From IMG/VR virus record IMGVR_UViG_3300009709_000020, positions 38,787 through 102,786 of that record: 64,000 nucleotides of DNA; one strand, 5' to 3'. Origin of the DNA: a virus. The notes under the pieces were generated by a model. The model saw only the letters and a list, made by a program, of their open reading frames with translations, made no database searches and was not told the DNA's origin. Shown in pieces: positions 488-60,078 of the stretch; position 1 is the first letter of the stretch; the number at the start of each line of letters is the position of its first letter. A program made the translations under genes and the position numbers.

Positions 488-494
488 ATAAATA
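488..494 (+). promoter_or_regulatory. T4-type late promoter (ATAAATA), 5 nt before the ATG
   Basis: ATAAATA-gtctt-ATG(500); same motif recurs before many structural genes. Confidence 0.65.
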
Positions 495-499
495 GTCTT

Positions 500-15400: not shown

Positions 15401-17770
15401 CCAGTACTGTCCGTAACAGATGATTCGGGATCAATGATTGCAATCATTCAAAATGGAAACGGTCTTGTATGGACAGATCCTTACGTATTGCACAATGGTA
15501 CTAAATTAGTAGTAGGCGTAACAGATAAAATCTCTGCTATCAATAACAATGCATTGCAGACAATTTCCACTGAAAATATGGCGGTAGGCAATGAGATAAC
15601 ATTTGACACGTCTGCATTCGGGGGATTAATTCCTTTCAAGAATTACTACATAATTTCAATTAATAGTGCAACTTCATTTTCAATTTCCGAAACATTGGGT
15701 GGACCTACTGTAGTTTTAACAAATTCTTCAGGTGGTTCAACTTTTATCACAAATGATTATGCATTTGATGTGCAAACAGACGGAACAACTGCGAAAATTA
15801 TTTTCGCAGAAACAGGTTTAACACAAGAAAATGATTATATATCATTTACTGTATTCGGTGAATCATTGCCCGATCAATATGGTTATTCTATTCCCGAAAT
15901 TCAGAATTTTAAAGGAAATGGTTCAACTACGTACCAATTGACAAATTTCGTTGAATATGAAAACCCTGATCATGCAATAGTAGAGGTAAATGGGTTGAGA
16001 GTTATGCCAAATACATTCACAATCAATGGAGAATTGAACAATATTGTGTTTAATTCTGCAAAAACAAATGCAGATGAAATAAATGTTATGTCATTTAATG
16101 ACACCAATAGGCAATATCTAACAACATCAGATGTACTAACAGGAAAGTCAGTGGTTAATATTGTCAATGTTAACACATCTGTTTCAGATTATACTGTGCG
16201 TGGATGGGTAACCTCATCAAATAGTTCAAACAATCAATTAACTGCGGTATCTCCTGGAGGTACTACAGGAATGATTTCAGGACAATCTATTTCTTTCTAC
16301 GGAACAAGCTTCGGTGGAGTTAATACAACGGATAAAGTTTATTACGTAGGAACAGTAGTATCTTCTAGTAACTTTACTATTGTCGATAACACCGGAACAG
16401 TGGTTACGTTGACCACTGCTACTGGTTACATGGATTTTACTGTCGGAGGAATGGAAACCACTAGAATTACAACAGGAGCTCCTCACAATTTTACCACTAA
16501 TGAGAAAGTAAGAATGTATGGTATTGAAGGATCTATAGAACTAAACAATAACATATATTATGCAAGATATATTACGCCTACAGTATTTGATATATATACA
16601 GCACCATTTACACAAACATTGAGTGGTTCAAATTCTCCCGTAACTTCTGCAAGTTCATACACGGGTTCGGGCTATGCATCATCATTGGGACAATACAGAA
16701 TTATTACAACTGAATCCACTTCAATCAATTCTAACTTAATTGTATGTACTTCTGTTGACCGAATGATTCAAGGCAATCCAGTATATTTCTCTGCGGCCGG
16801 TTATCAGGATGGTGACACAATAGTCTCTGGCATTGTGCAAGGACAAAAATATTATGTTGGTACAATTGATCCAAACGCCTTTGGGTTCAGCATCAGTACA
16901 ACGCAATTTGGTCCTGATATTGTATTAACTAATTCAGTTCAGAACATGAATGTTACTTTATGGAATCAGCTAAATCCTGATAGAGTTTGGGTATATTTAA
17001 ATGGTAAACGTGTTCCTTCATCAAAAATTACAATTTCTGATGTAAATGAAATTTCTATTAATAATGTTATTATTTCGTCAGACCAAATAATCATTACTAG
17101 CATGATTCCTACTGCTACTCCGCATGAACAAAAATTCATGAATATCATTGATTCGTCCGGTACGCAAACAATTTTTAACATGAATTCTCCATTCAGAACA
17201 TGGTTGACACATGATTTGTCAGCCACTGATACTGAATTATTTGTAAATGATGTAAGTAAGTTAACTGTAACAAAAATTCAAACAAATGTAGTAACTTTTG
17301 ACACAGATGGCTATTATGTGGGATTAAATGCTGATAAGAACAAGATTACATCAATTTCTGTTTTTAACGTGACCAGTCAGCAAACAATAGATACTGAACA
17401 TTATGTATCACTTATTTCAGGTATGTCGCCCGAAATAAGAATTGAACAAGGTGCGTGGATCAAACCCGGAGATACAGTAGAAATTACTATTTTGGAAGGA
17501 AATCTAATTTACGTTGCCGGAGAACAAATAATGTTTTCTGACATAAATGCTGAAACAAATTCAATTTCGGGCTTAGTAAGAGGTGTTAATGGAACCGGAA
17601 CCGTTCCGATGATTAATGTGAACGAAACGGTTTATTGTCTTTTGGACGTAAATCAAATGAATGAAAATTACAATAATGTTATTTGGAATTCATATGAGTA
17701 TAGTGCACTAGGTGATCCACTACAGATTAGTAATACGGTTCCTGCGCAATTTCTGAACACCGAATTCTGA
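500..17770 (+). CDS. Giant virion structural protein (baseplate/tail-associated), 5,756 aa
   Basis: Uninterrupted 17.3-kb ORF, T/S/N/G-rich beta-type composition, ~13 internal G..I.F....G......YYV repeats, structural-gene context, late promoter. Confidence 0.8.
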   Translation: MATIRTLSFLPEIYRTKKNAEILSGTLDNIVSEPTYSRIQGYIGSKFGNGIDASASYIPEVNKERTDYQLTPSVISLDDDTKNVSDFITYPGMVNELTNRGSITNNNASLFEGNTSSWDSFTDLDKLVNYHQYYWLPDGLPSVDITGNSATSVLNYQVTSDVSTYSIEEINATSTNFNPSITLVRGKTYTFAVNQNSQFWIQTEPGLLGKSTLNPAISTREIYGVTNNGSESGTITFTVPYENAQETFEFSTRYLVDITSDKLATSIIGNHLYDLVDPVTGNIIPGVNNIDGITDLDGKIIFFPDTELPSSAGSHTYTDGVVVYQMPYFSSTDFGYFYKIVYEEDPNNTGNPILTLQRLEAIPFNASIVAKYGLTNINVPYYQVSSLVFAKVPNLTARLTKLYYQDSEVSTKTGIFNIVDDTASVIIDINDILGKKTYTSPNNIVFTNGLKIKFDSYVHPSSYANIEYYVDGVGSSINLIPVLNLVCPESFSESEYNTFDNFPFDADTFDVSMYIPVEPDYITIARSAINENAWSRSNRWFHTDVISAAGTYNNSDYLTTYATSNAKAKRPIVEFYPNLKMFNSGTTSVPFVDFYDSTTTDAFSNVAGKLSYYADIDAYVPVSTIAGTVTSPVNSSSLVAGQAYQISSLGNTNWNLVVGTSNIIYYVGDTIVCKNAVSGTGTATFLATSTTATLNSNNATGTFSAGMFVATEDATLLPAGSYIFSATTDDSGITTLVIHWDDPQNILGGNAALIATNNSMDNYQLFSGARIIFSNDVDETVRNNIYTVNITQVEENEAPVIVLSLADQGEPILGTQTVILRGESFKGKSIYFDGISWNLAQQKITINQPPLFDVLDKNENSLSDASIYASSSFTGTKLFSYSIGTGAPDSVLGFPISYSSTNNIGDIAFTVDFNSDIFNYVNGANVVTENINTGYVYQYSTPSSFNRLLGWTASVAPVPQYQIFNFVYDSSTPVLKCDIEKSTNTIWPSIKVFYNNAYVNNDKYSVITDANSTEVTLITPPSDGTPVEVLLLSDQVSANGYYDIPTNLNNNPLNNSLEKVNLDEIRLQFNDIFINNGTITGSINGANSYRDSGNPIGYGTKLIQNQCPVVTPGLFLRDSSLNLQEALLFNSREYVKYKQLLTFTVQNSNYDVTYSPADILDDAIEQISLARTESNSFYWTDMLPSRVPYISKTYTFRNNTNNVALSLSKIYDFSVASYDSVLVYLIRVVNGKKNVIQLQKNVDYTVSSTATNVIITKQLLQNDIITVNEYNQTYASYVPHTPSKLGLYPLFVPEIILDNNLVTPTYFIKGHDGSYTKLYGSYDANTESLNDFRDIALFEFENRIYNNTKLSSTVPVIDLTEIKPGYFRDVPTFSDWLSVYTANFMNWAGQNRIDYTSHYFDKNNPFTFNYRNSSEKLTNTANNIGNWAGLYQYFYDTFTPHLTPWEMLGFSIKPSWWDARYGAAPYTSGNTILWNDLQLGFVWNDGDSYTKEKYARDRLAEIIPVDAAGNLLDPMTVLVGNYDANIFQADWIIGDTGPAELSYRRSSSYPFDIINAYSLLKPAKFYNLAIDLDVYQYNTEFGQWLTNGRNSLTLSDIKVYGSGIAKTSYLNWIVDYQKQHGIDASSYISNKLSNVDVRLTYRLAGFSDQTLLNFSLEKVSPNDNNTALKIPNENYNIILYNNQPHDQLTMSSVIIQKTGNNWAVYGNSQSSAYFVIDSPVINGKTIAVEYGSATVKVAQDYSQTKQYIPYGTIFYSTQEIAQFIKSYSSSLETKGVILDQTFNGSPINWDTMIQEFLYWSQTGWESGSAITLNPASTTLKITPPMGIVQPLTNSADNFILNQNLYPIKSKDLDVYRQDNSFTVSTLNPGDSMSYTQLDYASLEHGIVFDNTTMFNDVIYDLTTGLRQYRIMLSGRKTAEWNGTLTTNGFFLSQDNIVAWSTGTKYYAGNIVTYKNKYWAAQQTVEAASNFDTSVWKIVKTESIRYGMLPNSANRAYESTLFYDVDRSNLASDNDLLSMSLIGYRPRDYLALADLTTAAQLNVYKNFIKNKGTPNSLEVFNTVNLAQGELKYDIHENWAIKTSQFGDKNSGKYIEMQLDETQITGNASIISVTNGDVPAGTSQIVPINKLYNYNFNVLSPNILPLMESQDQQTAGYVSFDDVNVFSYNFSGLDNATDSTGNLLDINNLYTGDYIWVANFNGSWGVYSTVIQGTITSITYGSSYSTVTFSDPHELSVNDPIAVIQTTDDINGYYQVNTVVDSKTITIPYANALNSGKTIELLGFVLKLENKRYSTISSLPDIVNVFDKNDIYWIDEDSNGRWAVYQKTSNKYSLVDTISTLSGNNKAIVSEELGILITNGNNVDRYSMVGTDYLLTETINGGAGFGSSIATSDRTIFIANSITQQINVYYNNDTVLSSNSVLINTIDLACDKIWISEDGNYLYASDTSTNSINVIKKINYDISAEFMTAGRAYIIQTLGDSDWVSVGAIENSPNVVFVASGPITPSTGVAKEISYELGFTISGSETGFGTDFASSSTGHTIVVGSPDKIINSLQGVGGAYIYVQDAQTTKTSYQNNNNPEQIGIVFSNNAVIANAFTTVTGSNIYFSVPAGLKINDRVVFGGAYIENYGFNTSAVYYVQSVSPTYITVKSTISSNTPVLFDSITGISGQCYIQDNTVDVFVNGTVVTTDNYFIKNSTLTYIGNFSAGDIIAIVFSSYTLTQTLAGNNTTRIDSHYGSSVTIDRSGNEIFVSSPYEVSTSSEGSVYRYTNTAGISGTILGSNICNVTISGTVTINGYPIVIPIGNSVVASSVINNSKIPNIVASSVDGKVMISVINDSETIALQKIIINAPESLLTQLGILLRTNTQVIRSSDTYAKTGFGYSLAITDNELFVSSINSVCESQVTFDTVYKNDHTNTVFDNQTTLFYDVSPATGLVETFNLIEGPNYTRQYVYGQSLSVDDDDINFGNNLSIAGNNLVISSENATFNVNVFYGTEENWSVLRQESVTVDINSIDGINLYSKTNSVSLVNLDYIDPLNGKILGVARENIEFMSTVDPAKYNSVSSGITSVWGAEFVGMCWFDMSNTKWIDYNQTDITYNIKYFGKVFPGSDPAVYTWINSAYPPALYSGTGTVYDISKYCSKSTLDNSGNIITTYYFWVRNTNTITQNHTLADTVIENYIKNPAASGVAYCALLTPSSYALYNAVPYINGTDTIMHLGFSTGSDLEGNIHTEYSLIRENYEDDFLYGIPENTNTNLLPNHDLYPTSGEKTPYGLYLKLLDSFSGSNTFGNPVPDPFLPMPIQSGISIRPSQSMFMDRLSALENFVTYINNILASYPITETRTNITLLQTTGTYFNTNDYWSYENWWVEGFDNNTKPTRQVSVYADLNMLSVNAGTLVKVNDNGFGKFEIYQYTGDAWNRIGLESGTIQLSSNLYDYIDYNIGFDGSFFDTDSFDFCPSEETRYVIRGVFEQLLVDDLLSYRNPALIMLFEYIQSEEPAYGTNIDWLKKTSLVDISHDVRQLTQQNVYKSDNETFLEGFINEVKPYRVLIKDYLFTYSGIDEANIYATDFDLPASIMGSEFVTPMLTDTPNASNEFLPSDNIWNQNIYTDWFKYKGLSLAQENNYRIAYLSSYIDTSTREIEVDNSYVFPESGTITINGEILGYSGVNRALNLLTGIIRGVNNTTISTHFPGAEIFMDIPEIIMLNSGNNYASTPNVTAFIDTTIYPEPEIEMELEAIMSNGSVISINVLNPGQGYFTVPEIMIDPSYIIYFDDNSIDTALYTLNLYAPNLTTGDIIQFSGNNSSVPENIVNGAWYYVNVLETTPNTIIALYKTYRDSINDRARIKIGISGTTNTMALNAGARAVAVTTPNPVRDIKINLKFDRTTYRNRVLDWNEGVYYGSYFAGTLYDSSRISSSSYTLQNVYPNIDTILASNHGATFEIVNVENIEQTEWSTIVRTVTSVINNVITITPPSVLQNSFDSTVGFMVNSPIKFGSNISGLIENQTYYVNSVLNTYQFTVSDTVSGNVLSIPDQTVNSTAIPGIVADQGRITVNYKGIVTITGTEKTTNKLFTELSVAGTQGTTNFYKGAPIFFVENVFGNIVENQVYYVNTIVDNETFTVNKVDNFITTVVTATDGSNNTIIVGDSTDFIINDPIMIVGDLAGTNIVSGKLYYINEIVDINHVKISLLTNNEPVVLNTVADVLATMDNQKNTVPLTTTTGSMIANMSLPVSPGQIDGQLFSFYKTSGFKSGLTSSTYSNLLTGTISATNGSTNRIYVGSIDTTTYYENMPIEVFATANGLSVNTPYYITNIGKVSLTVTSTNGTILTCNSTTELYSGMKIIFSGNSLGTLILGQEYYVVDVLSPTTFTITNVKGSPAITLTASTGAMLGGGDNYFELSLSPGGSNVALTTGVTSIQYTQYITSYPTIDISYRLGGYTALIANSGSGFSINNTIVFSGSAVGGSSPQNDITLKVNTVDTLGQITSVIVTGTPPALSENFYLKVVSDTELDIFSDKELKSSVPASNLNYTGYTMTSVSRLTAPYSLTLGSTSGFYVGDSVYITGDNTGTFVAGKEYFVYSITSDTNMILSTLPGDNTTIVPVTDNNVTLTIAKPGDFIFLSEPFYFTQSIVKYNNRLYECVVSNHDTEFVLGKWNEINANDIRLNALDRTFVYYDPTVNMPGTDLTQLIDGLVYPNPVYMGNYFALDQQYDVDTHVVDNDPNASYTIQGNDFSYSYGPEELMPGKIQDNISVISSTLPGTNWDVVTYGHTGFDITNLEITPSGSTQTIFSFKNESQTVSGITVQEIDGTTGLATTMPISSYSIDWVNKEIILATPLPYYPIINRLQIELFETGNGYQLAKSDTDDAPIITNTNTGFNEINLACNYNEALISGNGVLKYDSTLITEAVTETVAATNRLICTDVSLFTIGKAITFEGGLFGGIVANQPYYVKTINPASNTITISDSFDSSTGTVGPVLSVTDDSGSMIAIIQNGNGLVWTDPYVLHNGTKLVVGVTDKISAINNNALQTISTENMAVGNEITFDTSAFGGLIPFKNYYIISINSATSFSISETLGGPTVVLTNSSGGSTFITNDYAFDVQTDGTTAKIIFAETGLTQENDYISFTVFGESLPDQYGYSIPEIQNFKGNGSTTYQLTNFVEYENPDHAIVEVNGLRVMPNTFTINGELNNIVFNSAKTNADEINVMSFNDTNRQYLTTSDVLTGKSVVNIVNVNTSVSDYTVRGWVTSSNSSNNQLTAVSPGGTTGMISGQSISFYGTSFGGVNTTDKVYYVGTVVSSSNFTIVDNTGTVVTLTTATGYMDFTVGGMETTRITTGAPHNFTTNEKVRMYGIEGSIELNNNIYYARYITPTVFDIYTAPFTQTLSGSNSPVTSASSYTGSGYASSLGQYRIITTESTSINSNLIVCTSVDRMIQGNPVYFSAAGYQDGDTIVSGIVQGQKYYVGTIDPNAFGFSISTTQFGPDIVLTNSVQNMNVTLWNQLNPDRVWVYLNGKRVPSSKITISDVNEISINNVIISSDQIIITSMIPTATPHEQKFMNIIDSSGTQTIFNMNSPFRTWLTHDLSATDTELFVNDVSKLTVTKIQTNVVTFDTDGYYVGLNADKNKITSISVFNVTSQQTIDTEHYVSLISGMSPEIRIEQGAWIKPGDTVEITILEGNLIYVAGEQIMFSDINAETNSISGLVRGVNGTGTVPMINVNETVYCLLDVNQMNENYNNVIWNSYEYSALGDPLQISNTVPAQFLNTEF

Positions 17771-17786
17771 TATGATAAATAATCAG

Positions 17787-17897
17787 ATGAATAATGATAA
17801 AAAACCTAATGAAAAGCTTGGTATCACGGTCGATAGTTCTTTAAAAATTATCGATCCTGATACCAAGCAGGTATTACTACACAAAAGGGCTGATTAA
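17787..17897 (+). CDS. Small 36-aa late protein (MNNDKKPNEKLGITVDSSLKIIDPDTKQVLLHKRAD), absent from the ORF track
   Basis: ATAAATA 17775-17781 + 5 nt + ATG; TAATG coupling to next gene; LKIIDPDT mirrors LKIFDPNT at the start of the next protein. Confidence 0.7.
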   Translation: MNNDKKPNEKLGITVDSSLKIIDPDTKQVLLHKRAD

Positions 17898-38646: not shown

Positions 38647-39714
38647 ATGAATTATAAAAAAATATACTATCAACTATGTGAATATGCTACTATATGTTCT
38701 CCTAGAGAACGGTTAATGAAAAGAAATAAGATGGATGTAAGATTGCAATCAAATGTGATATATACTGAGCGTCACCATGTAATACCAAGGCATAGTGGGG
38801 GTTCTGATAACCCCCACAATTTAGTTGAATTATTACCAGAAGAACATTTATTGGCACATTTATTGCGTTATAAAGCATATAACAGTAATAATGATTTCAT
38901 TGCAGCTAGATTCATTATTAATGGATATATGAATAAAGCAAATATATTGGATGTTGATATATCGGTTTTCACAAATAAATCACTATTAAAATGTATTGGA
39001 TTATACAAGAATATGATTGTTGAATATAGAAAAATACATGGATGGCAAACAGATGATGGTAGAAAAAGAATTTCTGATGCACGAAAAGGAAAATTTCCAT
39101 GTGTCGATGCAAAAACAGGAGAAAGTGTTGGCAGCCATGATAGAAATCATCCCAACATATTATCTGGAATGTGGGTGCACCATTCTAAAGGAAAAGCTTC
39201 AGTAATCGATATTCATACTGGTGAAAAATTATATTTACCCGTTTCACAAATATCCCAAAATAAAACGCAGTATATATACAGCGCAAAAACAGATCAAGCT
39301 GGAACAAAAAATAACAATTTTAAACCATTAACCACTGACATGAAAAAACGAGTATTTAATTGTGTATCACATTCAATAATGGATGAACGCTATTTCTCAG
39401 TCAATCAATTCAGTGAATTAATCAAAAAAGAGTTCACTGAATTTAAAAAAATATCAGTTGCATGGATAAAAAATAGATTTGGAAGTTTCGATGCCATGTT
39501 GAACGAATATAATAGCCAGAACAACACTGATATACAATACATCCCATATTATAGATCAACGGCACAACGAGAAAAGTTGAAGAACATCTCATCACAGCAA
39601 TGTTGGATAACAGATGGAACAGAATTACGTAGAATTCTCAAAAGTGATTTAGAAAATCAACTTAAATTAAATCCCGCCTTTAGGCGTGGTAAAACTATAA
39701 AGAAAGAAATTTAA
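38647..39714 (+). mobile_element. HNH homing endonuclease (MobE-like) between the nrdA halves
   Basis: ERHHVIPRHSGGSDNPHNLVEL..EEH..AH; stop overlaps the ATG of nrdA-C. Confidence 0.85.
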
Positions 39715-40821: not shown

Positions 40822-40983
40822 ATGAAAGAAAAAATTTTCAATACAGGAAAATCGGATTATAATAATACCGAGCTATTGCTCGGTAGTGATCCCGGTTTAT
40901 TCGATACAATACACAAAAAATATCCTAAAATTTGGTCTTTATATAAAGAAATGAAGTCATTGGATTGGTTCGAAAATAGATAA
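40822..40983 (+). pseudogene. Truncated duplicate of the nrdB 5' end (53 codons)
   Basis: 40822-40968 matches 42704-42850 except two synonymous changes; ends FENR*. Confidence 0.8.
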
Positions 40984-40990
40984 ATAGGAT

Positions 40991-42682
40991 ATGACTAAAA
41001 ATTTAAAAACATGTCCTTTAACTAAAACAGAGTTGTCAAATGCGTACAATGAATGCAAATATTCAACATCTGCATTACCCAAGTACATAAAAGAGCATTT
41101 TGATTTGGACTTGTCGAGAACACAAGTGGAACGTTTTTTAAAAAATTATAACTTGAATAAATCTTTCCACGAAAAAAAAATGATTGACTGTAATTATGAC
41201 AGGGCAGGATTAGAACAAGCCCTGAGGGAGTGTGATTTTAATGTTGTAAAATTTGTTCAGCGAGAAAATTCACCGTCGGTTACCTGGGCAAAAGTCATGA
41301 CTTGGATCAATGTTTTTAAATTGGATAAATCAAGTGTGGTTAAACGAACACTTAGGCGCCCATGTCCCATGTCTAAAAACGATTTTGTTTCATTGGTGTA
41401 TGAATGTGGTTTCAATAAATTTGAAATTACTAGAAGATTTTTAAAATATTATGATTATAGACCATGCATTGTTAGGTTTTTTCATTCTTTTGAATTGGAA
41501 TTTTATAAATTAAAAAAAGAATTTTTGGACATCATTGAAAATGCAGACAAAGAATTTATTGTAAAAACTCTGGAAAGTGTTGATTATGATTTATCGGAAG
41601 CAGCAAATTTATTGAATTTTCCTTCAACTGGAGTAATAAGAAATATTTTCAATGATAACAAAATCAATAGTTTTTCTTTATTGCATGAAAATAGAAAATT
41701 GTTTGATGAAATGACTTTAGGTAAAATATCAGATATTTTAGAAATTCCAGTTTGTCACGTAAAAGAATATAGAATTCTAAGTGGTATTGAACTAAATGAA
41801 AACGTATACTTGAATAGTACTGGCGAAATAGAAGTACTAGATTTTATTCGCAGTCTAGGATTTCCATCTGCATCCAAAAAAAGATATTTGGATGAAAATG
41901 ATAAAAAATTTGAAATTGATATAGTAATAGAAGAAAAAGGTTGCGGATTTGAATTTAACGGGGATTATTGGCATTCTACGTTCAAACAGTTAGATAAAAA
42001 TTATCACTCAGCGAAGATCAAAAATGCAAAATATCACGGAATAGAATTATTTCATATTTTTGAGCATGAATGGAATTTAAAGAAAGATATCGTAAAATCA
42101 AATATTAAACACAAATTGGGAAAAACTGGAAATAAAGTATTTGCAAGGAAATTGACTATATGTCATAATATTTCATCTTCTGAGGAAAAGGAATTCTTGA
42201 CGAAAAATCATATTCAAGGATATGTAAATTCTTCGGTAAAAATTGGGTTAAGAGACAATGATAATAAATTAATGATGTTGTTAACCCTCGGGAAGCCTAG
42301 ATTTGATCGAAATGTTGATTGGGAAATATACAGAGTATCGACACAGTTGAATACTGTAGTAATAGGTGGACTAAGTAAACTATTAGATGAATTTAAACGA
42401 AAATTTAATCCAAAAACCATAATGACTTATGTGGATTTGCGCTATGGATCTGGTAATAGTTATGAACTCTGCGGTTTTGTTTTAGATAAAATAACCAAAC
42501 CTAGCTATTTCTATGTAAAAGGAGACGTTATATTATCTCGCTATCAAGCACAAAAACATAAAATATTAAAAATGTTTCCTGATACCGATAAAACACTGAC
42601 CGAAACTGAAATAATGGCGACCAATCGCTACAATAAAATATATGATGCAGGAAATGCAAAATTAATATTTTTGAAAAATTGA
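40991..42682 (+). mobile_element. Second free-standing Vsr/PD-(D/E)XK-like (Hef-like) endonuclease gene
   Basis: FEIDIVI....GFEFNGDYWHS, FARK, VIGGLSKLL, IYDAGN; C-terminal half homologous to 24672-26180; ATAAATA at 40980-86. Confidence 0.75.
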
Positions 42683-51463: not shown

Positions 51464-51604
51464 ATGTTTACAGTAATTTATTTGATGTTAGGTGCTGTAC
51501 TTGCGGCGCTGTTTCTTGTTGCAGGACAAATCAGCATTTCGATTGGATTGCTTATCGGAGCAGCTTTTATCATGTTGTTTTGTGCCTTTAAGGGATATTG
51601 GTGA
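51464..51604 (+). CDS. 46-aa two-helix membrane protein, absent from the ORF track
   Basis: GGAG SD; MFTVIYLMLGAVLAALFLVAGQISISIGLLIGAAFIMLFCAFKGYW; TGATG coupling to next gene. Confidence 0.6.
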   Translation: MFTVIYLMLGAVLAALFLVAGQISISIGLLIGAAFIMLFCAFKGYW

Positions 51605-51981
51605 TGGATTATAATCTTTTCCTAGATGATGAGCGACTCCCAGGACATGTAACCTGGGTTGAATTGCCTTCAACAACTTGGCAGGTTGTTCGTGATTTTG
51701 ACGAATTTGTCATGACCGTACAAGAATATGGTCTACCCGTGTATGTCACGTTTGATCACGATCTCGCGGATCAGATGTATGGGCATGGACTGAATGGAGA
51801 TGCTATTCCTTATGAAACCTATACAGAAAAAACAGGTTATGATTGTGCAAAATGGCTTGTGCAGTATTGCATAGACAACAACCTAAAGTTTCCTGAATAT
51901 CAAGTTCATTCGATGAACCCAATTGGTAAGGAAAATATCATCCAGTATATTAATTCGGCAAAAAGATCGGCAGGCATTTAA
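51604..51981 (+). CDS. Cyclic-phosphate-processing receiver-like domain protein
   Basis: LFLDDER.P, TFDHDL, TGYD.AKWL, HSMNP.G..NI. Confidence 0.75.
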   Translation: MDYNLFLDDERLPGHVTWVELPSTTWQVVRDFDEFVMTVQEYGLPVYVTFDHDLADQMYGHGLNGDAIPYETYTEKTGYDCAKWLVQYCIDNNLKFPEYQVHSMNPIGKENIIQYINSAKRSAGI

Positions 51982-52226
51982 TGAACACAGAAGAACTTAT
52001 TACTCTCTTCCTAGAAAACAAAGGAACTCTTATTACCGAAGCATTGCTTTCTCTCGGATTTGTTTCTTCAAAAGGAGAAGCAAAGAAAATGATTGAACAA
52101 AATGCAATTAAACTTGGTTCAAAAAAGTTAACAAATGTGAATGCGAGAATTTTCAACATTGATAATAAACTTGTCATGGTAGAAAAAAATTCTAATGGAA
52201 TTATTGACATTACTACAAAGTTTTGA
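51981..52226 (+). CDS. Stand-alone S4 RNA-binding domain (TyrRS C-terminal type)
   Basis: LITEALLSLGFVSSKGEAKKMIEQNAIKL fits L...L...GL..S..EAR..I.QG.V.I. Confidence 0.7.
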   Translation: MNTEELITLFLENKGTLITEALLSLGFVSSKGEAKKMIEQNAIKLGSKKLTNVNARIFNIDNKLVMVEKNSNGIIDITTKF

Positions 52227-52240
52227 TATATTGATTTATT

Positions 52241-52332
52241 GGATGAGTGGCAGAGTGGTTTATTGCTGAAATCTACTAAATTTCCGAAGGCAGTGATCCT
52301 GCTTTCCGTGGGTTCGAATCCCACCTCATCCT
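52241..52332 (+). tRNA. Class II tRNA with anticodon ACT (Ser, AGU); CCA not encoded
   Basis: Acceptor GGATGAG/CTCATCC; D-loop with GG; anticodon arm GAAAT-CTACTAA-ATTTC; long variable arm GAAGGCAG/CTGCTTTC; T-arm GTGGG-TTCGAAT-CCCAC; promoter TTGACA-17-TATATT at 52204-52232. Confidence 0.88.
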
Positions 52333-52345
52333 CCGGAGATAAAAA

Positions 52346-53326: not shown

Positions 53327-54010
53327 TTAAATTCTTTCTAATCTTTTAGGATTTGTTTCTACCTGTGATCTAATCCATTCTTTTGCTACTGGATTTCTAG
53401 ATGGTGTGTTTAACCAATTATTAATTTTTCTTGCAGCACGTTGGACATTATTTGCGCCACCTTCATTCTGAATGAGATAAAAATTGGGAGTAAATAAATG
53501 TTCTAATTCAGTAATACCGTGTTGTGTTTTTTTCCATGCATCTTCAATAAATTCAGGGTCTACTACACGACCAAAATCAGGACCAGGCGTCGTTGCTCTT
53601 GCTTCGGCACGTTTTAAACTTGTTTCGAGTGACACGTTTACAAAAACCATTGCAGTTTCATAACCCAATGATTCTAATCTGGTTTTGGTTTCTTTGATTC
53701 TAGTAGCATCTCTTGCAGTGCCATCAATTAACAATCCCAATTTACCATCTAAGAATAAATTTTCTTGTTTTTTGTATTGGCGATGGTAATAATCATAGTC
53801 GTTGTGTGGTTGTTTCTTGTTATAGAAATACCAGAATTTATCTAAATTCAATTCCTTTAAACCCGAACCACGAAATAGTTGATGGGCAACCGTTGTTTTT
53901 CCTGCACCCGGACTTCCTGCCATGAAAACCGCTTTAAAAATATGCGGATCATGAATACCTTCTGACAGGATAGGCATTTTGGGGTAATTGATTAGATCGA
54001 TCATTTTCAT
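53327..54010 (-). CDS. P-loop kinase (zeta-toxin/AAA_33-like)
   Basis: AVFMAGSPGAGKT, LLIDGT, MVFV...LETSLKR..AR; start moved to 54010 (ATAAATA-5nt-ATG). Confidence 0.75.
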   Translation of the reverse strand: MKMIDLINYPKMPILSEGIHDPHIFKAVFMAGSPGAGKTTVAHQLFRGSGLKELNLDKFWYFYNKKQPHNDYDYYHRQYKKQENLFLDGKLGLLIDGTARDATRIKETKTRLESLGYETAMVFVNVSLETSLKRAEARATTPGPDFGRVVDPEFIEDAWKKTQHGITELEHLFTPNFYLIQNEGGANNVQRAARKINNWLNTPSRNPVAKEWIRSQVETNPKRLERI

Positions 54011-54015
54011 GAAAC

Positions 54016-54043
54016 TATTTATCGGAACCTGATACAATAAATA
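54016..54043. promoter_or_regulatory. Back-to-back divergent late promoters
   Basis: ATAAATA on - (54022-54016) and on + (54037-54043), each 5 nt from an ATG. Confidence 0.7.
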
Positions 54044-54048
54044 TCATC

Positions 54049-57000
54049 ATGACTACAACACCTGATTTTAGAAAACTCATCGATATCATTAATGAAGCCA
54101 AGGTTCAGCCGGGCGACGTAAAAAATATTCATTTTAAATTGAATAAGCTTGACAAGTTGGAAAAAGAAATACGGGCCCAACAGGTTAATTTGAGCCAAAT
54201 GGGAACCATGAAACTTCCTCCAGAAATTCAGAAACAAATGGATGAGGTAAAAAATAAACTGGCTGAAAAGATTACTGAAATCCAAACTGCTAAAGAGGCA
54301 ATGGAACAACAGTATAATTCTGATACTCGTCCAGTTAAGATGACCAATCTATTCAATGCATTGGCGAAACATTGCAAAGAAATAATCACTGTGTACAAAA
54401 ATTTAAATAAGAATTTTGAATCTTATTCTCCTGGTACCAGACCAAGATTCTTGTTCAGAGGTATTCATGCAGATTCAGATGCGGTATATGGTAAACCATT
54501 TGAAAAACGTAGACCAATGACTTCAAATAGAGGTATTGCTGATGCAGTAAACGAATTGATGACAAAATCTGGTTTTAAAGCAAATCGTGAAAATGCTATG
54601 TTTACTTCTGGTGCATACAGTCAGGCATCCAGCTACGGTAACAAAGTTTATGTTATGTTTCCTGTCGATGGATTCGATTTTTCATATAGTAGAAAGGTAA
54701 GAGACCTTGTATTGGGTTCTGATGATTTTAGAAAAATCATCGACAAAGATGCACAAGATGAATTAATCGATGCGTATGAGAATGATCCGAATTTAAATAA
54801 AGACATTCGTTCAACTTTTCTAAAATCAGACTACAATATGAAAGAAGATGTAGATAAGGTTCAACAAGACATTAATTCCGGCAAATTAGATAAAAAATAT
54901 CAAAAAGCGTTAGATAATTTTTTCTCAGTTGATAAATTAAAAGAGTTTCTAGATTTTACAGACGAAGATATATACAATGCCATCGTATTGCACCACGAAG
55001 TTAATATCAAAGGTGATTACTACGCAGTAAGACAAGATTTTATCCCGCAGTTAGTTGAATTTCTAAAAGAATTCGACTCGTCAAAGGTAAAACTACCTGA
55101 ATCATTCGGTGAAGTTCCGGATATTTTGGATGAAAATACTTGGGTAAAAATTATTGAAGGAAAGAATTCAGGCAAAATAGGTGTTATTACCGGCGAAGAT
55201 GGCGGAAAATATCAAGTATATACCAGCGGAAATGATAGCAATTATTATGTCAAACAACAACTTAACAAATTCGAATTCCCTGAAAATAAAAAACCCGCAG
55301 TATTAAAACCTAACTCGGTAGTAAAAATCATTGACAATGATAGTCCTTATTTTGGTCAAATGGGAATTATTCCTGATTATTCTACCAATCCATTTTATGC
55401 CCCTGTTAATATTTTGGGGAGCACCGAGTATCTTATTTCTACTCAGGTAGAACTTGTCGATACTACGGAAGCATTTAAGCCGGGCAAATTCGTAATTTTG
55501 AATTCAACCTACAACCTTCCTAGTAAATACAAAGGAAAATACGCAGAGATAATGTCGGATATCGGCGGAGATAATGCTGCCCGGCTGGATATTTTCGATA
55601 TTTTTGGTAAAAAACTACAAGAAGATGTTCTAGAAACAGTAAATAACTTTCTTCCTACAGATAAACCAACATTCGTCAAGAAACTTCCTGGTTTTGAAAA
55701 AGGAGACAAGGTTGTTACTACATTCGGCAGTGACATTATATTAACCATCGTAGATGTAAACGAAACGCACGGGAATTTTTATTATACTGCGAAAGCCGAT
55801 CAAGGTACAACTATCAATGATGTAGCAGAAGATCATTTAAAAGTCGCACCAGACCAAGACCACAAATCAGAGAAAATTAAAATAGGCGACAATATTAAAA
55901 TATTGTCCGGTCCTAAGAAAAATTCATTTCAGGTTGTGTCTGCTATAGTTGAAGGTGGATATGCATTTGATAATAATGAGTTTGTAGCAAAAGAAGAAGA
56001 TGTTAAAAAAGTTTTTGCTGCAAAAATGGGAGATTATATTAGAATTCCGATGGATGCTAATTTGGGTTCTGCACTGAAAGGAAAAGTCGGTAAGGTAATA
56101 TGGGCATCCAATTCATCATACGATAATGATATTCAGGTTTCTGTGGTCACGGACAATAATCCAAATTATTCCACTTACACAAACAAATATGCAGTAGAAC
56201 CTATTACAAAAGAAGAATATGATTATGAAACAACTAAACTTGGTTCAAAAGTAGAAATTACGGCTGATACTGAAAATAAAGGGAAAGTCGGAGAGGTAAT
56301 TAACAAAGAAAAAAGTAATTCTTCATCCAGTATTGTTGTTACCGTAAAATTTGATGATGGTTCGACTGAAGATTATGAAATTTCTGAAGTCACACCATAT
56401 GAATACACATTTAAAGTAGGTGACATTGTAACGCGTTCGGAAAGCGGAGATAAATTATATGTTGTTATAACAGATAAAGATGCAGAAGGTGATTATAGGA
56501 TCACTGGGACTGGTGAAACTCATGATTATATATATGCAAACAGTTCTCAAATGGTATATACCGGTGAAACACTTAAACCAGAAAAAATATCAGAAAATGA
56601 TCGGGTTGAATTAATCTTTGGTCCATACAAGGGACAAAAAGGAAAGGTGACATATGTACATGGAAAAAATGTATCGGTGAACCTAGATTCGAATAATAGT
56701 CATGATATGTGGGTAGGATGCGTAAAGAAAATAGAAGATAAACCAGTCGAATATAAAGAAGGCGATAATGTAAAAATTGTCGGTGAACCAGAAAAAGGTC
56801 AAACCGGCACTATTATTCAAGTGGATAAAGATGGTGACATCGAAGTTCAAATTACTTCTGGACCAAATGAAAATGAAAAATATTTTTATGAACCGAAAGA
56901 TTTAACATTAATAACAGATGATTCGGTTGCCATAAACGGCGATTTTAAACCCGGTGATAAAGTAAAAATTGTTGATCAAGACAGCCTGAACGTAGGTGAT

Positions 57001-59133
57001 ACAGGAACGTTCATCGAATATCAAGAAAAAGATGGTAATCCAAAAGGAACAGTTAAACTTAAACTAGACAATGGATCCACTGTAAAAACCTATACTCATT
57101 GGATTGAAAAAGTTGGTTCTGGGTCAGAAAGTATGTCAGGCGAAAAACCATCACAAGACAATGTAAAGAATGGGCAAGAAGTAAAGATTATTTCAGTTGA
57201 TGACGATGATAAGTCCAATGGCATTAAAGTTGGAATGGTTGGTAAAATTGTTAATGCTGGTCATTCATCGACGTTTTGCAATATAAAATTTAATGATCCT
57301 GATGTCAAACCAAATCACACTGGATATAACACCTTGTATTATAGCCAAATAGAATTTGTGGATCCTTCAGAAGAAAATTCATCTGAAAGTACATTAACCC
57401 CAGTAACAAGTTCCAATGCGCAAATAGGGGACATAGTTAAAGTTATTAAATTGGATGATATGGACGATACCAATAATATTAAAATTGGTGATACTGTAAA
57501 ATTAACGAAATATGATCCTCCTATACATGCAGGAAAAGCTGTCTGGGAAACAATCGTAGTTGATGGCAATTGGCAGGACAACGATTGGCAATTTTATCCA
57601 GAGCAATTATCATTGATTTCAGAAGATGAAATTCCTGAACCCGATGATAAAGAGTTTGATTCACCTTTTGATTCCACTGAAGAATCTAATAGCAAATTTG
57701 AAGTAGGTCAACAAGTAGAAGTCATTGAAGTGGACGGGACAGATAAGGCTCAAGGTATTAAAGTAGGAATGACTGGTACCGTTGCAGAAGTAGATGATGA
57801 ATTAATACACGTCAAATTCGATGACTCTTCAGTAAAAACTGGTTCGGCAGGAACCAATTCTATGTATGACTATCAGGTTAAGTTAATTGACCCTAAACAC
57901 ACGGAAGAATCTGGTACCGATTTTAAAGTTGGACAAAAAGTAGAAGTTACTTCAGTTGATTATACTGATACAAAAGCCGGAATTAAAGTGGGTATGATTG
58001 GTACAATTACTGAAATTGACGGAAACTTGTTTAGTATTAAGTTTGATGATCCGTCAGTTAAGAAAAACCCTGACGGAACAAATTATTTGTCTGATGACCA
58101 AGTCAAGTTAGTAACTTCTGCATCACCAACTAACCAACCAGTAACGGAGGTTACTGCTAAAACTGCAAAAATTGGTCAAACAGTTGAAGTGACGGACGTA
58201 GTTGAAGATGATATTGAAGTGGGCATAAGTTTAGGCATGATTGGACAAATATCAGAACTATATTCTGACACAGCATGTTATGTCGATTTTCCGAAAATTG
58301 GCAAACAACTTGTTTTGTATACACAAATAGAATATCCCGAACAACCTAATCAAGATTCACCTGAGGAACTAAAATTCAAGGAAGGTGACAAAGCTGTGAT
58401 TGTTACAGGAATCGGAAAAGGTAAAACTGGAATCATTGGGAAATATATTGCAACCACGGACAAATATGAATTTACCAAAGATGATTCCGGTTTGAAATAT
58501 GAGTTACCTCCTGAAAAATTAGAAAAAGTATCTGATACATCAACAGAACCAAGCGATACTAATTTAAATCCTAATAATGTTGCCCACGGAAACAAAGTGA
58601 CTGCAATTACAGGTGAACATGCAGGAAAGTTGGGAGTAGTTATTGCAGCTTTTGATACAGGGTCGGCAATTGTTAAATTTGATGATGAAAATCATGATAC
58701 AATGATGAAACTTAATAATCTTGAGAAAGTTAACAAAACTGCATCCTCATCAGAAAAACTTGAAAAAGGTGACTATGTAGAAATTCTAATTGGCGACTAT
58801 AAGGGTCGCACAGGTATGGTGTTAAAGAAAGTAGGTACAGGACCATATTATAAAATTGTACTAGATGACGGAAAAACCTCACAATATTCAAAAAATGAGT
58901 TGAAACTCACATCAAAATTTAAGAATCCAAATTCGTTAGATGAGGATCAGGAAAATTCTGAATTAGATTCAATTATTAGTTCATTAGAACAAAAAGGCAA
59001 GCAACTAGGATATTTGACATACGCAATGATTGATCAAGCATTGGGTGAATATGCTGATACTATGTCACGAGAACAAATCAACAACCTTGTTAAACAATTA
59101 GAAAACAAAGGCATCACTCTAAAACCATTTTGA
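54049..59133 (+). CDS. 1,694-aa multidomain protein: ART-like domain + ~19 KOW/SH3-like modules + sigma70 region 1.1-like C-terminus
   Basis: FLFRG...FTS....A..YG...HHEV; repeated FK.GD.V.I..G..KG..G.V; C-terminal KGKQLGYLTY..I...L......S.EQI..L...L...GI.L. Confidence 0.7.
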   Translation: MTTTPDFRKLIDIINEAKVQPGDVKNIHFKLNKLDKLEKEIRAQQVNLSQMGTMKLPPEIQKQMDEVKNKLAEKITEIQTAKEAMEQQYNSDTRPVKMTNLFNALAKHCKEIITVYKNLNKNFESYSPGTRPRFLFRGIHADSDAVYGKPFEKRRPMTSNRGIADAVNELMTKSGFKANRENAMFTSGAYSQASSYGNKVYVMFPVDGFDFSYSRKVRDLVLGSDDFRKIIDKDAQDELIDAYENDPNLNKDIRSTFLKSDYNMKEDVDKVQQDINSGKLDKKYQKALDNFFSVDKLKEFLDFTDEDIYNAIVLHHEVNIKGDYYAVRQDFIPQLVEFLKEFDSSKVKLPESFGEVPDILDENTWVKIIEGKNSGKIGVITGEDGGKYQVYTSGNDSNYYVKQQLNKFEFPENKKPAVLKPNSVVKIIDNDSPYFGQMGIIPDYSTNPFYAPVNILGSTEYLISTQVELVDTTEAFKPGKFVILNSTYNLPSKYKGKYAEIMSDIGGDNAARLDIFDIFGKKLQEDVLETVNNFLPTDKPTFVKKLPGFEKGDKVVTTFGSDIILTIVDVNETHGNFYYTAKADQGTTINDVAEDHLKVAPDQDHKSEKIKIGDNIKILSGPKKNSFQVVSAIVEGGYAFDNNEFVAKEEDVKKVFAAKMGDYIRIPMDANLGSALKGKVGKVIWASNSSYDNDIQVSVVTDNNPNYSTYTNKYAVEPITKEEYDYETTKLGSKVEITADTENKGKVGEVINKEKSNSSSSIVVTVKFDDGSTEDYEISEVTPYEYTFKVGDIVTRSESGDKLYVVITDKDAEGDYRITGTGETHDYIYANSSQMVYTGETLKPEKISENDRVELIFGPYKGQKGKVTYVHGKNVSVNLDSNNSHDMWVGCVKKIEDKPVEYKEGDNVKIVGEPEKGQTGTIIQVDKDGDIEVQITSGPNENEKYFYEPKDLTLITDDSVAINGDFKPGDKVKIVDQDSLNVGDTGTFIEYQEKDGNPKGTVKLKLDNGSTVKTYTHWIEKVGSGSESMSGEKPSQDNVKNGQEVKIISVDDDDKSNGIKVGMVGKIVNAGHSSTFCNIKFNDPDVKPNHTGYNTLYYSQIEFVDPSEENSSESTLTPVTSSNAQIGDIVKVIKLDDMDDTNNIKIGDTVKLTKYDPPIHAGKAVWETIVVDGNWQDNDWQFYPEQLSLISEDEIPEPDDKEFDSPFDSTEESNSKFEVGQQVEVIEVDGTDKAQGIKVGMTGTVAEVDDELIHVKFDDSSVKTGSAGTNSMYDYQVKLIDPKHTEESGTDFKVGQKVEVTSVDYTDTKAGIKVGMIGTITEIDGNLFSIKFDDPSVKKNPDGTNYLSDDQVKLVTSASPTNQPVTEVTAKTAKIGQTVEVTDVVEDDIEVGISLGMIGQISELYSDTACYVDFPKIGKQLVLYTQIEYPEQPNQDSPEELKFKEGDKAVIVTGIGKGKTGIIGKYIATTDKYEFTKDDSGLKYELPPEKLEKVSDTSTEPSDTNLNPNNVAHGNKVTAITGEHAGKLGVVIAAFDTGSAIVKFDDENHDTMMKLNNLEKVNKTASSSEKLEKGDYVEILIGDYKGRTGMVLKKVGTGPYYKIVLDDGKTSQYSKNELKLTSKFKNPNSLDEDQENSELDSIISSLEQKGKQLGYLTYAMIDQALGEYADTMSREQINNLVKQLENKGITLKPF

Positions 59134-59193
59134 CCCAAAATGTTTGACAAACAAATGACATAAGTGTAATCGTCTAGAAAGGAGATCGCATTT

Positions 59194-60078
59194 ATGTCAT
59201 TTGATAAGTTGTTGGGTAGTTTTTTGGGTTTAGCGATCGGAGATGCCGTCGGAACAACACTGGAATTTAAGGTTCGTGATTCATATGTCCATCTGACAGA
59301 TATGGTTGGTGGAGGACCATTCAATCTTCCAGTCGGATATTGGACTGACGATACTAGTATGGCAATCTGTCTTGCTAAAAGTCTGATTCATGCTCCGAAA
59401 TTGAACAAATATGATCTCCTAAACAGATTTTTTGATTGGTACGCAGATGGAGTAAACTCGTCCACTGGAAAATGTTTCGATATCGGCAATGGTACTCTAA
59501 ATGCATTGTTAGATTATAACAACACACTGCAAGTAGAACACAATCACGAAAATTACGTGTCTGGTAATGGATCAATCATGCGACTTGCTCCTGCATTTAT
59601 TGCCAATTCGAATAATTTACGACAAGCAATTTACATTGCACAAGAACAAAGTAAAACTACCCATTCATCTAGAATTTGCTTAGATGCATGTGATCTCCTG
59701 ACAAGAATTTTATTCAATTGCCTGAAATTTAACGATAAGAACAAAATTCTTGATGACATTGATCGCACTCCATACACACATGAAATTCAACACATTTTTA
59801 ATAATTTGCATGTCACTAGGCATGAAGTGGAATCTTCTGGCTATGTGGTTCATACGTTGCATGCAGCAATTTGGTGTGTTTTACAAACATATTCATTTAA
59901 AGAAGCAGTATTGCTGGCAGCAAATTTGGGAGATGATGCTGATACAGTAGCAGCCGTGACAGGACAGATTGCGGGAACTTTATACGGAGCAAATAGTTTC
60001 CCTGAAGAATGGAAAGAAAAAATTCTTGACCATGATCGTTTCATCCAACTTACGGAGGCCCTAATTGAAACTAAATAA
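59194..60078 (+). CDS. ADP-ribosylglycohydrolase (DraG/ARH family)
   Basis: GLAIGDAVG, WTDDT.M, CFDIG, GNGSIMRLAP, GDDADT.AA..G; TTGACA-17-TAATCG promoter at 59144. Confidence 0.93.
   Translation: MSFDKLLGSFLGLAIGDAVGTTLEFKVRDSYVHLTDMVGGGPFNLPVGYWTDDTSMAICLAKSLIHAPKLNKYDLLNRFFDWYADGVNSSTGKCFDIGNGTLNALLDYNNTLQVEHNHENYVSGNGSIMRLAPAFIANSNNLRQAIYIAQEQSKTTHSSRICLDACDLLTRILFNCLKFNDKNKILDDIDRTPYTHEIQHIFNNLHVTRHEVESSGYVVHTLHAAIWCVLQTYSFKEAVLLAANLGDDADTVAAVTGQIAGTLYGANSFPEEWKEKILDHDRFIQLTEALIETK

Follow-up and report, generated by a model that had tools for sequence, protein, structure and literature searches.

What is a phage protein of 1,694 residues doing with an enzyme-like domain at one end, a piece of sigma factor at the other and the gene for an ADP-ribosylglycohydrolase next door? 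This question is raised by one locus in a 64,000-nucleotide window of viral DNA (positions 38,787 to 102,786 of IMG/VR virus record IMGVR_UViG_3300009709_000020; all coordinates below are those of the window unless another locus is named). A preliminary description proposed that the giant protein is an ADP-ribosyltransferase (ART) which is injected and docks on the host RNA polymerase or ribosome, and that the hydrolase is its eraser. What that description observed holds up, and its interpretation is borne out in part. The reading preferred here takes the giant protein, P0001, for an ART-fold effector that a T4-core jumbo phage makes late, probably packages in its head and injects. In this reading it is equipped with docking modules and a partner kinase, and the ADP-ribosylglycohydrolase (ARH) and a HAD phosphatase limit or reverse its action. 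In this complete form the reading is put forward tentatively, with confidence that stops just short of even. In more general terms, an Alt-type strategy resting on an undescribed enzyme family is the most likely reading of the locus.

54049..59133, plus strand: the giant gene (P0001), an open reading frame (ORF) of 1,694 amino acids with homologues to E 1e-98.

The window is the final 64 kb of a viral contig of 102,786 bp. A jumbo-phage origin is indicated because a contig of this length is judged only ~30% complete, and its large terminase is 47-48% identical to the terminases of PA5oct-type jumbo phages. The giant ORF is a real gene, because ~25 metagenomic proteins (930-1,330 aa) match P0001 with E-values of 1e-83 to 1e-98. 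The matches run over the first ~440 residues and then resume in the repeats. Megablast of the locus against GenBank phages gave no match, and a tblastn search found Agrobacterium phage Atu_ph07 as its sole match. One homologue of the gene (L007:9920-12859) is split by a single in-frame stop into two ORFs of the same frame (9920-12199 and 12203-12859); the homologue in L004 is uninterrupted. The L007 stop may reflect a pseudogene, a sequencing error or read-through.

Is the N-terminal domain of P0001 an ADP-ribosyltransferase? Two parts of its predicted structure have to be distinguished.

54097..54333, plus strand: a long helical hairpin (residues ~31-90; helices 32-52 and 58-89 in the AlphaFold2 model).
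54334..55086, plus strand: an ART-fold core (residues 96-346) with a helical insert at ~223-313, from an AlphaFold2 model with a predicted local distance difference test (pLDDT) score of 92.9 and from structural matches.

The mean pLDDT of the model is 90.9 for residues 1-360 and 92.9 for residues 94-346. It consists of a short leader, the hairpin at 31-90 and a seven-stranded alpha/beta core that is broken by the insert. The hairpin has only generic coiled coils as structural matches. A VIA-align search with the full N-terminal model was swamped by it, so the core (94-346) was folded alone and compared exhaustively with 48,161 PDB representatives. Just six chains reach Z>=5. Four of them do not have the ART fold and cover the helical insert only. 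The core is spanned by the remaining two, BC2332 (Z 5.4, 123 residues aligned) and the rifampin ADP-ribosyltransferase Arr (Z 5.4, 88 aligned). Lower core-spanning matches are the PE-like toxin Spx (Z 4.3), AvrPphF ORF2 (4.0), exotoxin A (3.9) and AcrIF11 (3.7). When the Foldseek list was re-aligned with VIA, BC2332 came first again (Z 6.1, 127 aligned, root-mean-square deviation 4.0), followed by KptA/Tpt1 (Z 3.4-3.9), OspC3, TccC3, pertussis S1 and cholera A1. BC2332 is placed in SCOP d.166.1.6, within the ADP-ribosylation superfamily (PMC3000352). Because every core-spanning match in both VIA searches is an ART-fold protein, the domain is read as ART-like, and a divergent ADP-ribosyltransferase-type fold is supported at the fold level by the model.

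A second clue comes from the conserved residues. The motifs singled out in the preliminary description lie exactly where it placed them: FLFRG at nucleotide 54448 (residues 134-138), FTS at 54601 (F185) and HHEV at 54991 (H315). It had read them as an R-S-E triad. Family alignments show conservation of [FY]-R137-G, R154, R180, N182, F185, [ST]187 and E317, so that the R, S/T and E positions are kept family-wide. In two wide alignments (104 and 119 sequences) N182 is invariant. R154 and E317 are invariant in the smaller alignment and present in at least 90% of the larger one, and R137, G138, R180 and F185 are conserved at a level of at least 90%. By strand order in the model, R137 falls within the first strand, [ST]187 closes strand 184-187 and E317 opens strand 317-321. 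The ART triad has R or H in strand 1, S or Y after strand 2 and E, D or Q where strand 5 begins; in this topological order R137, [ST]187 and E317 would correspond to its R-S-E/H-Y-E pattern.

With this domain begins an extensive family that has no name and is confined to phages. When 1.84 billion representatives were scanned in full with HMMER, 1,228 clusters came up at E<=1e-3, many of which are stand-alone proteins 200-350 aa long. Neither Pfam nor PHROGs nor NCBIfam names the family, its sole match being phrog_11975 (unknown function), and the BFVD matches are all uncharacterised jumbo-phage proteins. In Atu_ph07 (L011, MF403008.1, ~39.5-53.1 kb) there is a tandem run of ~12 paralogues, all annotated as hypothetical. 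After the run comes a 778-aa 'Zeta toxin domain' protein in which an ART-like domain is likewise present. The IMG/VR contig L014 has four tandem copies. Such tandem arrays are a usual mark of effectors that evolve fast and are directed at the host, and they resemble fast-evolving sets of internal proteins. A Pfam search on ten further multi-copy or longer members found no additional domain. Related loci were also sought with single queries, namely the N-terminal segment from the window and the proteins P0074 and P0066, and none came up.

Could P0001 instead be mainly structural? It might be an internal head, scaffold-like or decoration protein made of small barrels, with the ART-like fold as a dead binding module. 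A late-type motif before the gene, the helical hairpin and weak Phage_scaffold matches in 4 of 119 family members would fit this. So would a number of barrels that ranges from 5 to 16 among relatives, and the replacement of S183 by A in the clade of P0001. What speaks for an enzyme rather than a scaffold is the conserved constellation. Most paralogues from Atu_ph07 and L014 have kept it, with H occasionally replacing R at 137 (one paralogue). R137, R154, R180, N182 and E317 persist in distant paralogues, even in barrel-less forms of 250 aa, and have the appearance of an active-site signature. A structural role is thus left with only a slim chance.

The preferred reading, an injected enzyme, owes its proposed target to what follows the N-terminal domain.

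55126..58920, plus strand: an array of KOW/SH3-like barrels (residues 360-1624), 16 significant and 2-3 weak, from Pfam and from a hidden Markov model (HMM) of the repeats.
58975..59130, plus strand: a sigma-70 region 1.1-like domain (residues 1643-1694), from Pfam, phmmer against the PDB, and relatives.

The barrels belong to the KOW/NusG-Spt5 kind and carry the motif G-x-x-K-G-x-x-G-x-V. Pfam finds KOW in five stretches (37.6 bits, cut-off 22.3), KOW4_SPT5 (34.4 bits, cut-off 27) and a weak DUF4314. A repeat HMM, built and iterated on P0001 itself, gives 16 significant barrels in residues 360-1624 with weaker ones at 566-587 and 785-817, which makes the earlier figure of about 19 modules a fair count. 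Five barrels at residues 1038-1420 (window ~57160-58308) are of the DUF4314/phrog_5785 type with a GI-x-VGM-x-G motif, not classical KOW, and look like recent internal duplications. Some source annotations call such proteins NusG or RNase P p29 homologues. These names derive from the KOW repeats alone and are rejected.

The last ~50 residues had been likened to sigma-70 region 1.1, and here the first impression has proved sound. Sigma70_r1_1 (PF03979) matches residues 1643-1690 with 24.2 bits (cut-off 22.5). A phmmer search of the last 69 aa against the PDB places RpoD/SigA region 1.1 in nearly all of the top ~20 rows, with weak E-values (0.04-0.2) and a shared GYLTY block. Eight other members of the N-domain family have Sigma70_r1_1 at 30.3-84.6 bits, either C-terminal or directly after the N-domain. 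Distant members that bear region 1.1 include P0069 and P0074. A scan of 119 family members brings up KOW in 19 of them and region 1.1 in 10. The assignment is secure because of the RpoD/SigA matches in the PDB, the eight strong family members and the 10 carriers among 119. P0001 was also considered as a sigma factor and rejected as such, since Pfam finds no Sigma70_r2, r3 or r4 match.

If P0001 acts on a host target, how does it get there? The region around its start codon is suggestive.

54037..54043, plus strand: a late-promoter-like ATAAATA of the giant gene, 5 nucleotides before the ATG, with no Shine-Dalgarno sequence; kept in relatives.
54049..54096, plus strand: a 16-residue leader ending I-N-E/A, a putative capsid-targeting propeptide with a prohead-protease site, from conservation.

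The late promoter and the ...IINE leader had both been picked out before, and both hold up in relatives. ATAAATA stands 4-5 nucleotides before the start codon of the giant-gene homologue in nine of nine relatives examined. ATAAATA is scarcer in the window than base composition would suggest: the two strands together have 17 copies, where ~49 were estimated. The strict T4 octamer TATAAATA occurs there only once. The conserved ATAAATA-N4-5-ATG arrangement suggests leaderless late mRNAs in this jumbo-phage group, and the mRNA of the giant gene is probably leaderless. The same motif, 4-6 nucleotides before an ATG and with no Shine-Dalgarno sequence, is also seen at window positions 488-500, 17775-17790 and 40980-40993. 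A 5,756-aa ORF at 500-17770 (plus strand), which shares the ATAAATA-N5-ATG arrangement, is possibly another giant late or virion protein.

In the leader, E16 and A17 are invariant in 15 close relatives, and I-N-E/A (residues 14-17) is the sole [LI]xE-A site in P0001. Within the first 40 residues, [LIVM]xE[AS] is present in 29 of 79 family members. The T4 protease gp21 cleaves after L/I-X-E, often at Glu-Ala (PMC9026906). Propeptides of ~10 residues target T4 internal proteins to the prohead, and a short propeptide is removed from packaged Alt (PMC9026906). A T4 gp21-type prohead protease gene (Peptidase_S77, 96 bits) lies on the same contig as the giant gene. A T4-style (L/I)xE-A leader together with a gp21-type protease in the genome therefore fits head packaging, and P0001 is probably packed in the head and injected.

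On the other side of the late motif is a kinase gene, which faces away from the giant gene.

53327..54010, minus strand: a Zeta-toxin/AAA_33-type P-loop kinase, from Pfam and PHROG; probable start ATG 54010.
54016..54022, minus strand: a late-promoter-like ATAAATA of the kinase gene, 5 nucleotides before its ATG at 54010.

The kinase matches Pfam Zeta_toxin (7.8e-16), AAA_33 (3e-9) and phrog_12810 (9.6e-39). Its start is probably ATG 54010 rather than TTG 54037 of the mechanical ORF call, because of the conserved late motif and the N-termini of relatives. The late motif takes the form ATAAATA plus 4 nucleotides in L010 and CTAAATA plus 4 nucleotides in L001, L004 and L005. An L-S-E site is found at residues 15-17 of the kinase, which may be packaged too. 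The kinase is the divergent neighbour upstream of the giant gene in ten of ten related loci (44-50% identity). In the window the late-type motifs of the two genes stand back to back. The link is stronger than mere adjacency because there are fusions: the family member P0071 is a single chain of kinase, ART-like domain, KOW and region 1.1, and the 778-aa protein of Atu_ph07 also has a kinase domain fused to the ART-like one. A prediction of the complex between N-domain and kinase scores 0.56, the best of three controls 0.00. Its runs agree in at least 89% of contacts, and the partner pLDDT is at least 76. Of 80 solved complexes, 58 attain that mark, as do 2 of 110 mismatched pairs, but scores of 0.60 or less come from only 7 of the 80 and from both mismatches, so the predicted complex gives weak support.

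The next link to consider is the one between the giant gene and its downstream neighbours.

59143..59148, plus strand: TTGACA, the -35 of a sigma-70-type promoter for the ARH operon; a perfect hexamer, conserved in relatives.
59194..60078, plus strand: an ADP-ribosylglycohydrolase (ARH) of the DraG/Tri1 type, from Pfam PF03747 and NCBIfam.
60065..60559, plus strand: a HAD phosphatase of the 'Swiss Army Knife' RNA-repair type (Pfam HAD_SAK_2, 4.1e-12), which overlaps the ARH stop codon.

The adjoining gene was recognised from the start as a DraG/ARH hydrolase, and it matches Pfam ADP_ribosyl_GH (PF03747) over its full length (E 7.8e-66, 223 bits, covering positions 1-287 of 287) and is intact. 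Against NCBIfam it scores 326 bits with the Tri1 ADP-ribosylarginine hydrolase and 156 bits with DraG. Because 326 bits is below the equivalog cut-off of 490, ARH is taken as a family member, not a Tri1 orthologue. The early-type promoter assigned to it is a more mixed case. The -35 hexamer is kept and an AGGAG Shine-Dalgarno sequence precedes the gene, but the -10 in the window is poor and the site is not listed by a consensus scan. In five of seven relatives the promoter is complete (TTGACA, 16-17 nucleotides, then TATAAC or TATACT, and a Shine-Dalgarno sequence), and the other two have the -10 only. A timing split, with a late writer and an eraser on a host-type promoter, is supported because the promoter types are conserved in relatives. 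It was anticipated in the preliminary description and is borne out by the late motif in nine of nine relatives and the sigma-70-type ARH promoter in five of seven. The ARH and HAD genes are proposed to be a translationally coupled, early-expressed pair.

The order kinase, ART-KOW, ARH, HAD phosphatase is kept in ten of ten related IMG/VR loci (HAD scored in eight). ARH lies immediately downstream of the giant gene in all ten, with 51-56% identity. Wherever a locus was examined, ARH starts 35-60 nucleotides past the giant gene, even in the three most divergent loci, whose N-domains have 31-33% identity, and the HAD gene adjoins or overlaps ARH in all eight loci that extend that far. The pairing of the two genes assumed in the preliminary description is tight in these ten contigs. 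The Atu_ph07 paralogues are without ARH, and the ten loci are not independent because all come from one phage lineage.

What if ARH and HAD are simply not erasers of P0001? P0001 could still be the proposed ART-like effector, with the two enzymes forming part of an RNA-repair or NAD-ADP-ribose module, or countering host ADP-ribosylating defences, and with adjacency reflecting the synteny of a lineage. ARH is absent from the complete 490-kb genome of Atu_ph07 despite its ~12 paralogues, and in L014, with four paralogues, neither ARH nor the kinase is found nearby. Conversely, ARH homologues (44-48% identity) occur in Serratia phage BF and in Erwinia and Salmonella jumbo phages with no ART-KOW protein adjoining. 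In phage BF there is no ART-like or KOW protein within 7 kb of ARH, and NAD-salvage genes are ~4 kb away. That ARH has its own promoter is in keeping with a separate role, as is the company it keeps (cREC, HAD_SAK_2, a tRNA and, in L010, an Rnl1-type ligase; see below). However, ARH has stayed 35-60 nucleotides from the giant gene even where cREC has moved, it is of the macromolecule-type DraG/Tri1 kind, and phage ARGs have been argued to prefer macromolecular adducts (PMC9503650). A non-eraser role for ARH and HAD is considered unlikely, though it carries real weight.

The wider neighbourhood adds two features just upstream of the cluster.

51598..51981, plus strand: cREC, a cyclic-phosphate-processing receiver (Pfam cREC_REC, 2.6e-20).
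52241..52334, plus strand: tRNA-Ser (anticodon ACU), from ARAGORN.

A cREC homologue is found ~2-5 kb from the ART-KOW gene, upstream or downstream, in eight of the ten related loci, and its position differs in the most distant, L010. This locus, on the 330-kb contig G001 (93% complete), encodes a T4 Rnl1-type RNA ligase at L010:15012-16181 (PF09511, 96.9 bits), with the HAD_SAK gene on one side and cREC on the other. No such ligase was found in the window's contig or within the flanks around the other nine loci. A small S4-like ORF is seen beside cREC and tRNA-Ser (window 51598-52334). Like the divergent kinase and the HAD phosphatase, the RNA-repair character of this neighbourhood had escaped the preliminary description.

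This RNA-repair theme suggests another role for the N-domain, that of a KptA/Tpt1 analogue which removes a 2'-phosphate in NAD+-dependent tRNA or RNA repair. In this hypothetical scenario, cREC would open 2',3'-cyclic ends, the kinase and HAD would heal them and Rnl1 would seal them, while the KOW barrels would bind RNA and the ADP-ribose by-products would be processed by cREC, HAD and ARH. The ingredients are at hand: cREC, a P-loop kinase with a polynucleotide-kinase PHROG match, HAD_SAK_2, a tRNA, and Rnl1 in L010. Phage repair clusters centred on KptA or a sirtuin, with cREC, kinase and SAK-HAD, have been described (PMC9503650). Neither the window's contig nor the 93%-complete relative G001 has a match to canonical KptA (PF01885), and phosphate could be bound by the three conserved arginines. 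The fold matches include KptA/Tpt1 structures, but at Z 3.4-3.9 this is a fold resemblance and does not make the domain a member of PF01885. What puts the scheme in a lower rank is the combination of a late motif, a putatively cleavable leader, arrays of paralogues and fusions to region 1.1. A late motif and a capsid-type leader would be odd for a repair enzyme; arrays of 4-12 paralogues suggest an effector in an arms race, not housekeeping; and fusion to region 1.1 is without obvious RNA-repair logic. Moreover, an invariant Glu opening the fifth strand is typical of macromolecule transferases, whereas the KptA clade has H-H-h (PMC9503650), and Rnl1 is in the cluster at just one of ten loci. 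A KptA-like role is decidedly unlikely on these grounds.

The same neighbourhood is rich in enzymes for small phosphorylated ribose compounds, which raises the thought that the substrate is small. The ART-fold domain might be an NADase or NAD+ phosphorylase, or act on small ADP-ribose-derived immune signals, and be delivered early against NAD-based defence, with its products processed by the kinase, ARH, HAD and cREC. Some ART-fold families are indeed NADases or NAD+ phosphorylases, and phages often package enzymes that target ADP-ribose (PMC9503650). Set against this, the long KOW arrays and region 1.1 make most sense as docking on a macromolecule, and the ARH is of the protein-arginine type. 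The idea is as improbable as a purely structural role.

Returning to P0001 as an injected effector that modifies a macromolecule, the course of events would be as follows. Late in infection the giant gene would give a near-leaderless transcript, divergent from that of the kinase. The 16-residue leader would direct P0001 to the prohead, where the gp21-type protease would cut at I-N-E/A, and P0001 would enter the next host cell together with the phage DNA. There the N-terminal domain would modify a host macromolecule, most likely with NAD+. The KOW array and the region 1.1-like end would bias the target to RNA polymerase or to the coupled transcription-translation machinery, and the Zeta-like kinase would be a functional partner of the N-domain. 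Finally, a host-type promoter would drive synthesis of the ARH (DraG/Tri1 type) and of the HAD phosphatase, and these two would limit or reverse the modification.

Several observations weigh against this scheme, in addition to the single lineage behind the ten loci, the RNA-repair theme of the neighbourhood and the phages that have the ART-like family or ARH apart from each other. The ART call stands at the level of the fold (the AlphaFold2 model and its VIA matches) and not at the level of sequence. Foldseek against the PDB, one of the checks named in the preliminary description, gives no match at E<=1e-3 with either the full N-terminal model or the core alone. The structural Z-scores (6.1 at most) are in a range that supports only a shared arrangement. 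No named ART family is matched by sequence in Pfam searches of 119 members, in a profile search against the PDB or in NCBIfam. For the 119 members Pfam lists 25 families at E<=1, with no ART-clan family among them, and sequence and profile searches of the PDB with the N-domain found nothing. A search of the ESM Atlas gave unnamed viral clusters only; the nearest named cluster, DUF2441 at 0.83, is a lead only. The domain is filed under a fold with no named family because the Z-scores are low and no profile reaches any ART family.

The residues tell a similar story. The positions behind the R-S-E assignment are conserved, but the classical [QE]xE that marks arginine-specific R-S-E enzymes is missing, with H, K or a variable residue at position 315. 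Compared with the R-S-E clade (Alt/VIP2, Mod), only the second Glu (E317) is kept, and the second motif is N-[SA]-x-F-x-[ST]-G, not S-T-S. S183, which is conserved in the wider family, is A in P0001. As for the docking modules, KOW-like barrels are generic. The closest relatives of ~1,000 aa end in a KOW barrel with no region 1.1 tail, so that region 1.1 is not essential to the clade. Its core in sigma-70 itself is acidic, but that in P0001 is not (isoelectric point 6.3).

The presence of both a kinase and a phosphatase in the cluster permits a more elaborate version of the effector scheme. Perhaps the ART-like enzyme and the Zeta-like kinase, which is of a sugar-nucleotide type, act in two steps and install a phosphorylated ADP-ribose on the host RNA polymerase or the coupled ribosome, and ARH and HAD strip both groups after takeover. 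The KOW array and region 1.1 would hold P0001 on its target, and the mark could be one that ordinary host hydrolases cannot remove. ART-ARG pairs in phages, and the coupling of ARG with a phosphatase in hosts, have been described (PMC9503650). If true, the two-step version would account for the phosphatase often found in host ARG-centred anti-phage systems (PMC9503650). As it stands, this idea is very unlikely.

Why does the locus matter? T4 Alt is the textbook example of a phage enzyme that is carried in the head, injected, and reprograms the host RNA polymerase. The locus suggests that an Alt-like role in jumbo phages may be played by another family, unrelated to Alt and much larger, whose ~1,200 sequence clusters all lack a name. 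Here the enzyme is joined to modules of the transcription machinery (NusG-type KOW, sigma-70 region 1.1), to a partner kinase and to a separately timed pair of candidate erasers. If this is true, it would mean a new ART family, the first case in which region 1.1 serves for targeting in a protein other than a sigma factor, and a natural pulse system in which a target is modified at entry and the mark is erased early.

The preliminary description knew of no protein with this architecture. Literature searches on KOW, region 1.1 and ART in phages likewise found no description of a protein that combines an ART-fold domain with arrays of KOW and with region 1.1 of sigma. In the Aravind-lab surveys PMC9503650 and PMC5512222, the terms 'KOW', 'sigma' and 'region 1.1' appear nowhere in the text. 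Packaged ARTs as such are well known, from T4 Alt to the polyvalent and MuF proteins (PMC9503650, PMC5512222).

How, then, does P0001 compare with known systems? Its region 1.1 is clearly homologous to that of sigma-70 (PF03979), including the GYLTY and GI-x-[VL] blocks. The difference is one of context, since in P0001 it is C-terminal, or in relatives internal, on a protein that is not a sigma factor, and its binding to RNA polymerase is putative. The best structural matches to the core are BC2332 (PDB 2aua; Z 6.1 over 127 residues) and Arr (Z 5.4 over 88 residues). However, identity is 8-9% with no profile match, both are small stand-alone cellular proteins with neither the insert nor accessory modules, and Arr targets an antibiotic.

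The repair clusters centred on KptA or a sirtuin (PMC9503650) are similar in that an NAD+-type enzyme stands beside cREC, a nucleotide kinase and a SAK-type HAD, with a T4-like RNA ligase in one relative. Here, however, the enzyme is neither KptA nor a sirtuin, it has a capsid-type leader, a late motif, KOW and region 1.1, and the cluster includes an ARG. The Tre1-Tri1 and DraT-DraG systems, in each of which an arginine ADP-ribosyltransferase is paired with a DraG-type hydrolase, share with this locus a writer-like gene that adjoins an eraser-like one, and Tri1 and DraG are the best curated matches of ARH. The match to Tri1 starts at profile position 66, and ARH is without Tri1's N-terminal extension. 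The two genes are on different promoter types here, and the writer's chemistry is only putative.

Similar in life style are the polyvalent and MuF-anchored proteins (PMC5512222), which are likewise large, late and probably packaged, with an ART-type enzyme delivered along with the DNA. Their ARTs are of the H-Y-D (HYD2) kind (PMC5512222). Unlike them, P0001 has no MuF or portal match, nor do the families listed for the 119 members include one, and a single enzymatic domain is recognised.

The closest parallel is perhaps T4 Alt. It belongs to the R-S-E clade (Alt/VIP2), to which P0001 has no detectable sequence relation and whose [QE]xE it lacks. P0001 also adds a large helical insert, the hairpin, ~18 KOW barrels and sigma region 1.1. 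Its gene pairs with those for a kinase, ARH and HAD phosphatase, and the family forms tandem arrays of paralogues in other jumbo phages. Nevertheless, the two have in common a late-type gene, a gp21-type protease in the phage, a short N-terminal propeptide, putative in P0001, that ends (L/I)xE, and an ART-type fold (PMC9026906, PMC9503650). A role in the takeover of host transcription, like that of Alt, is plausible for P0001.

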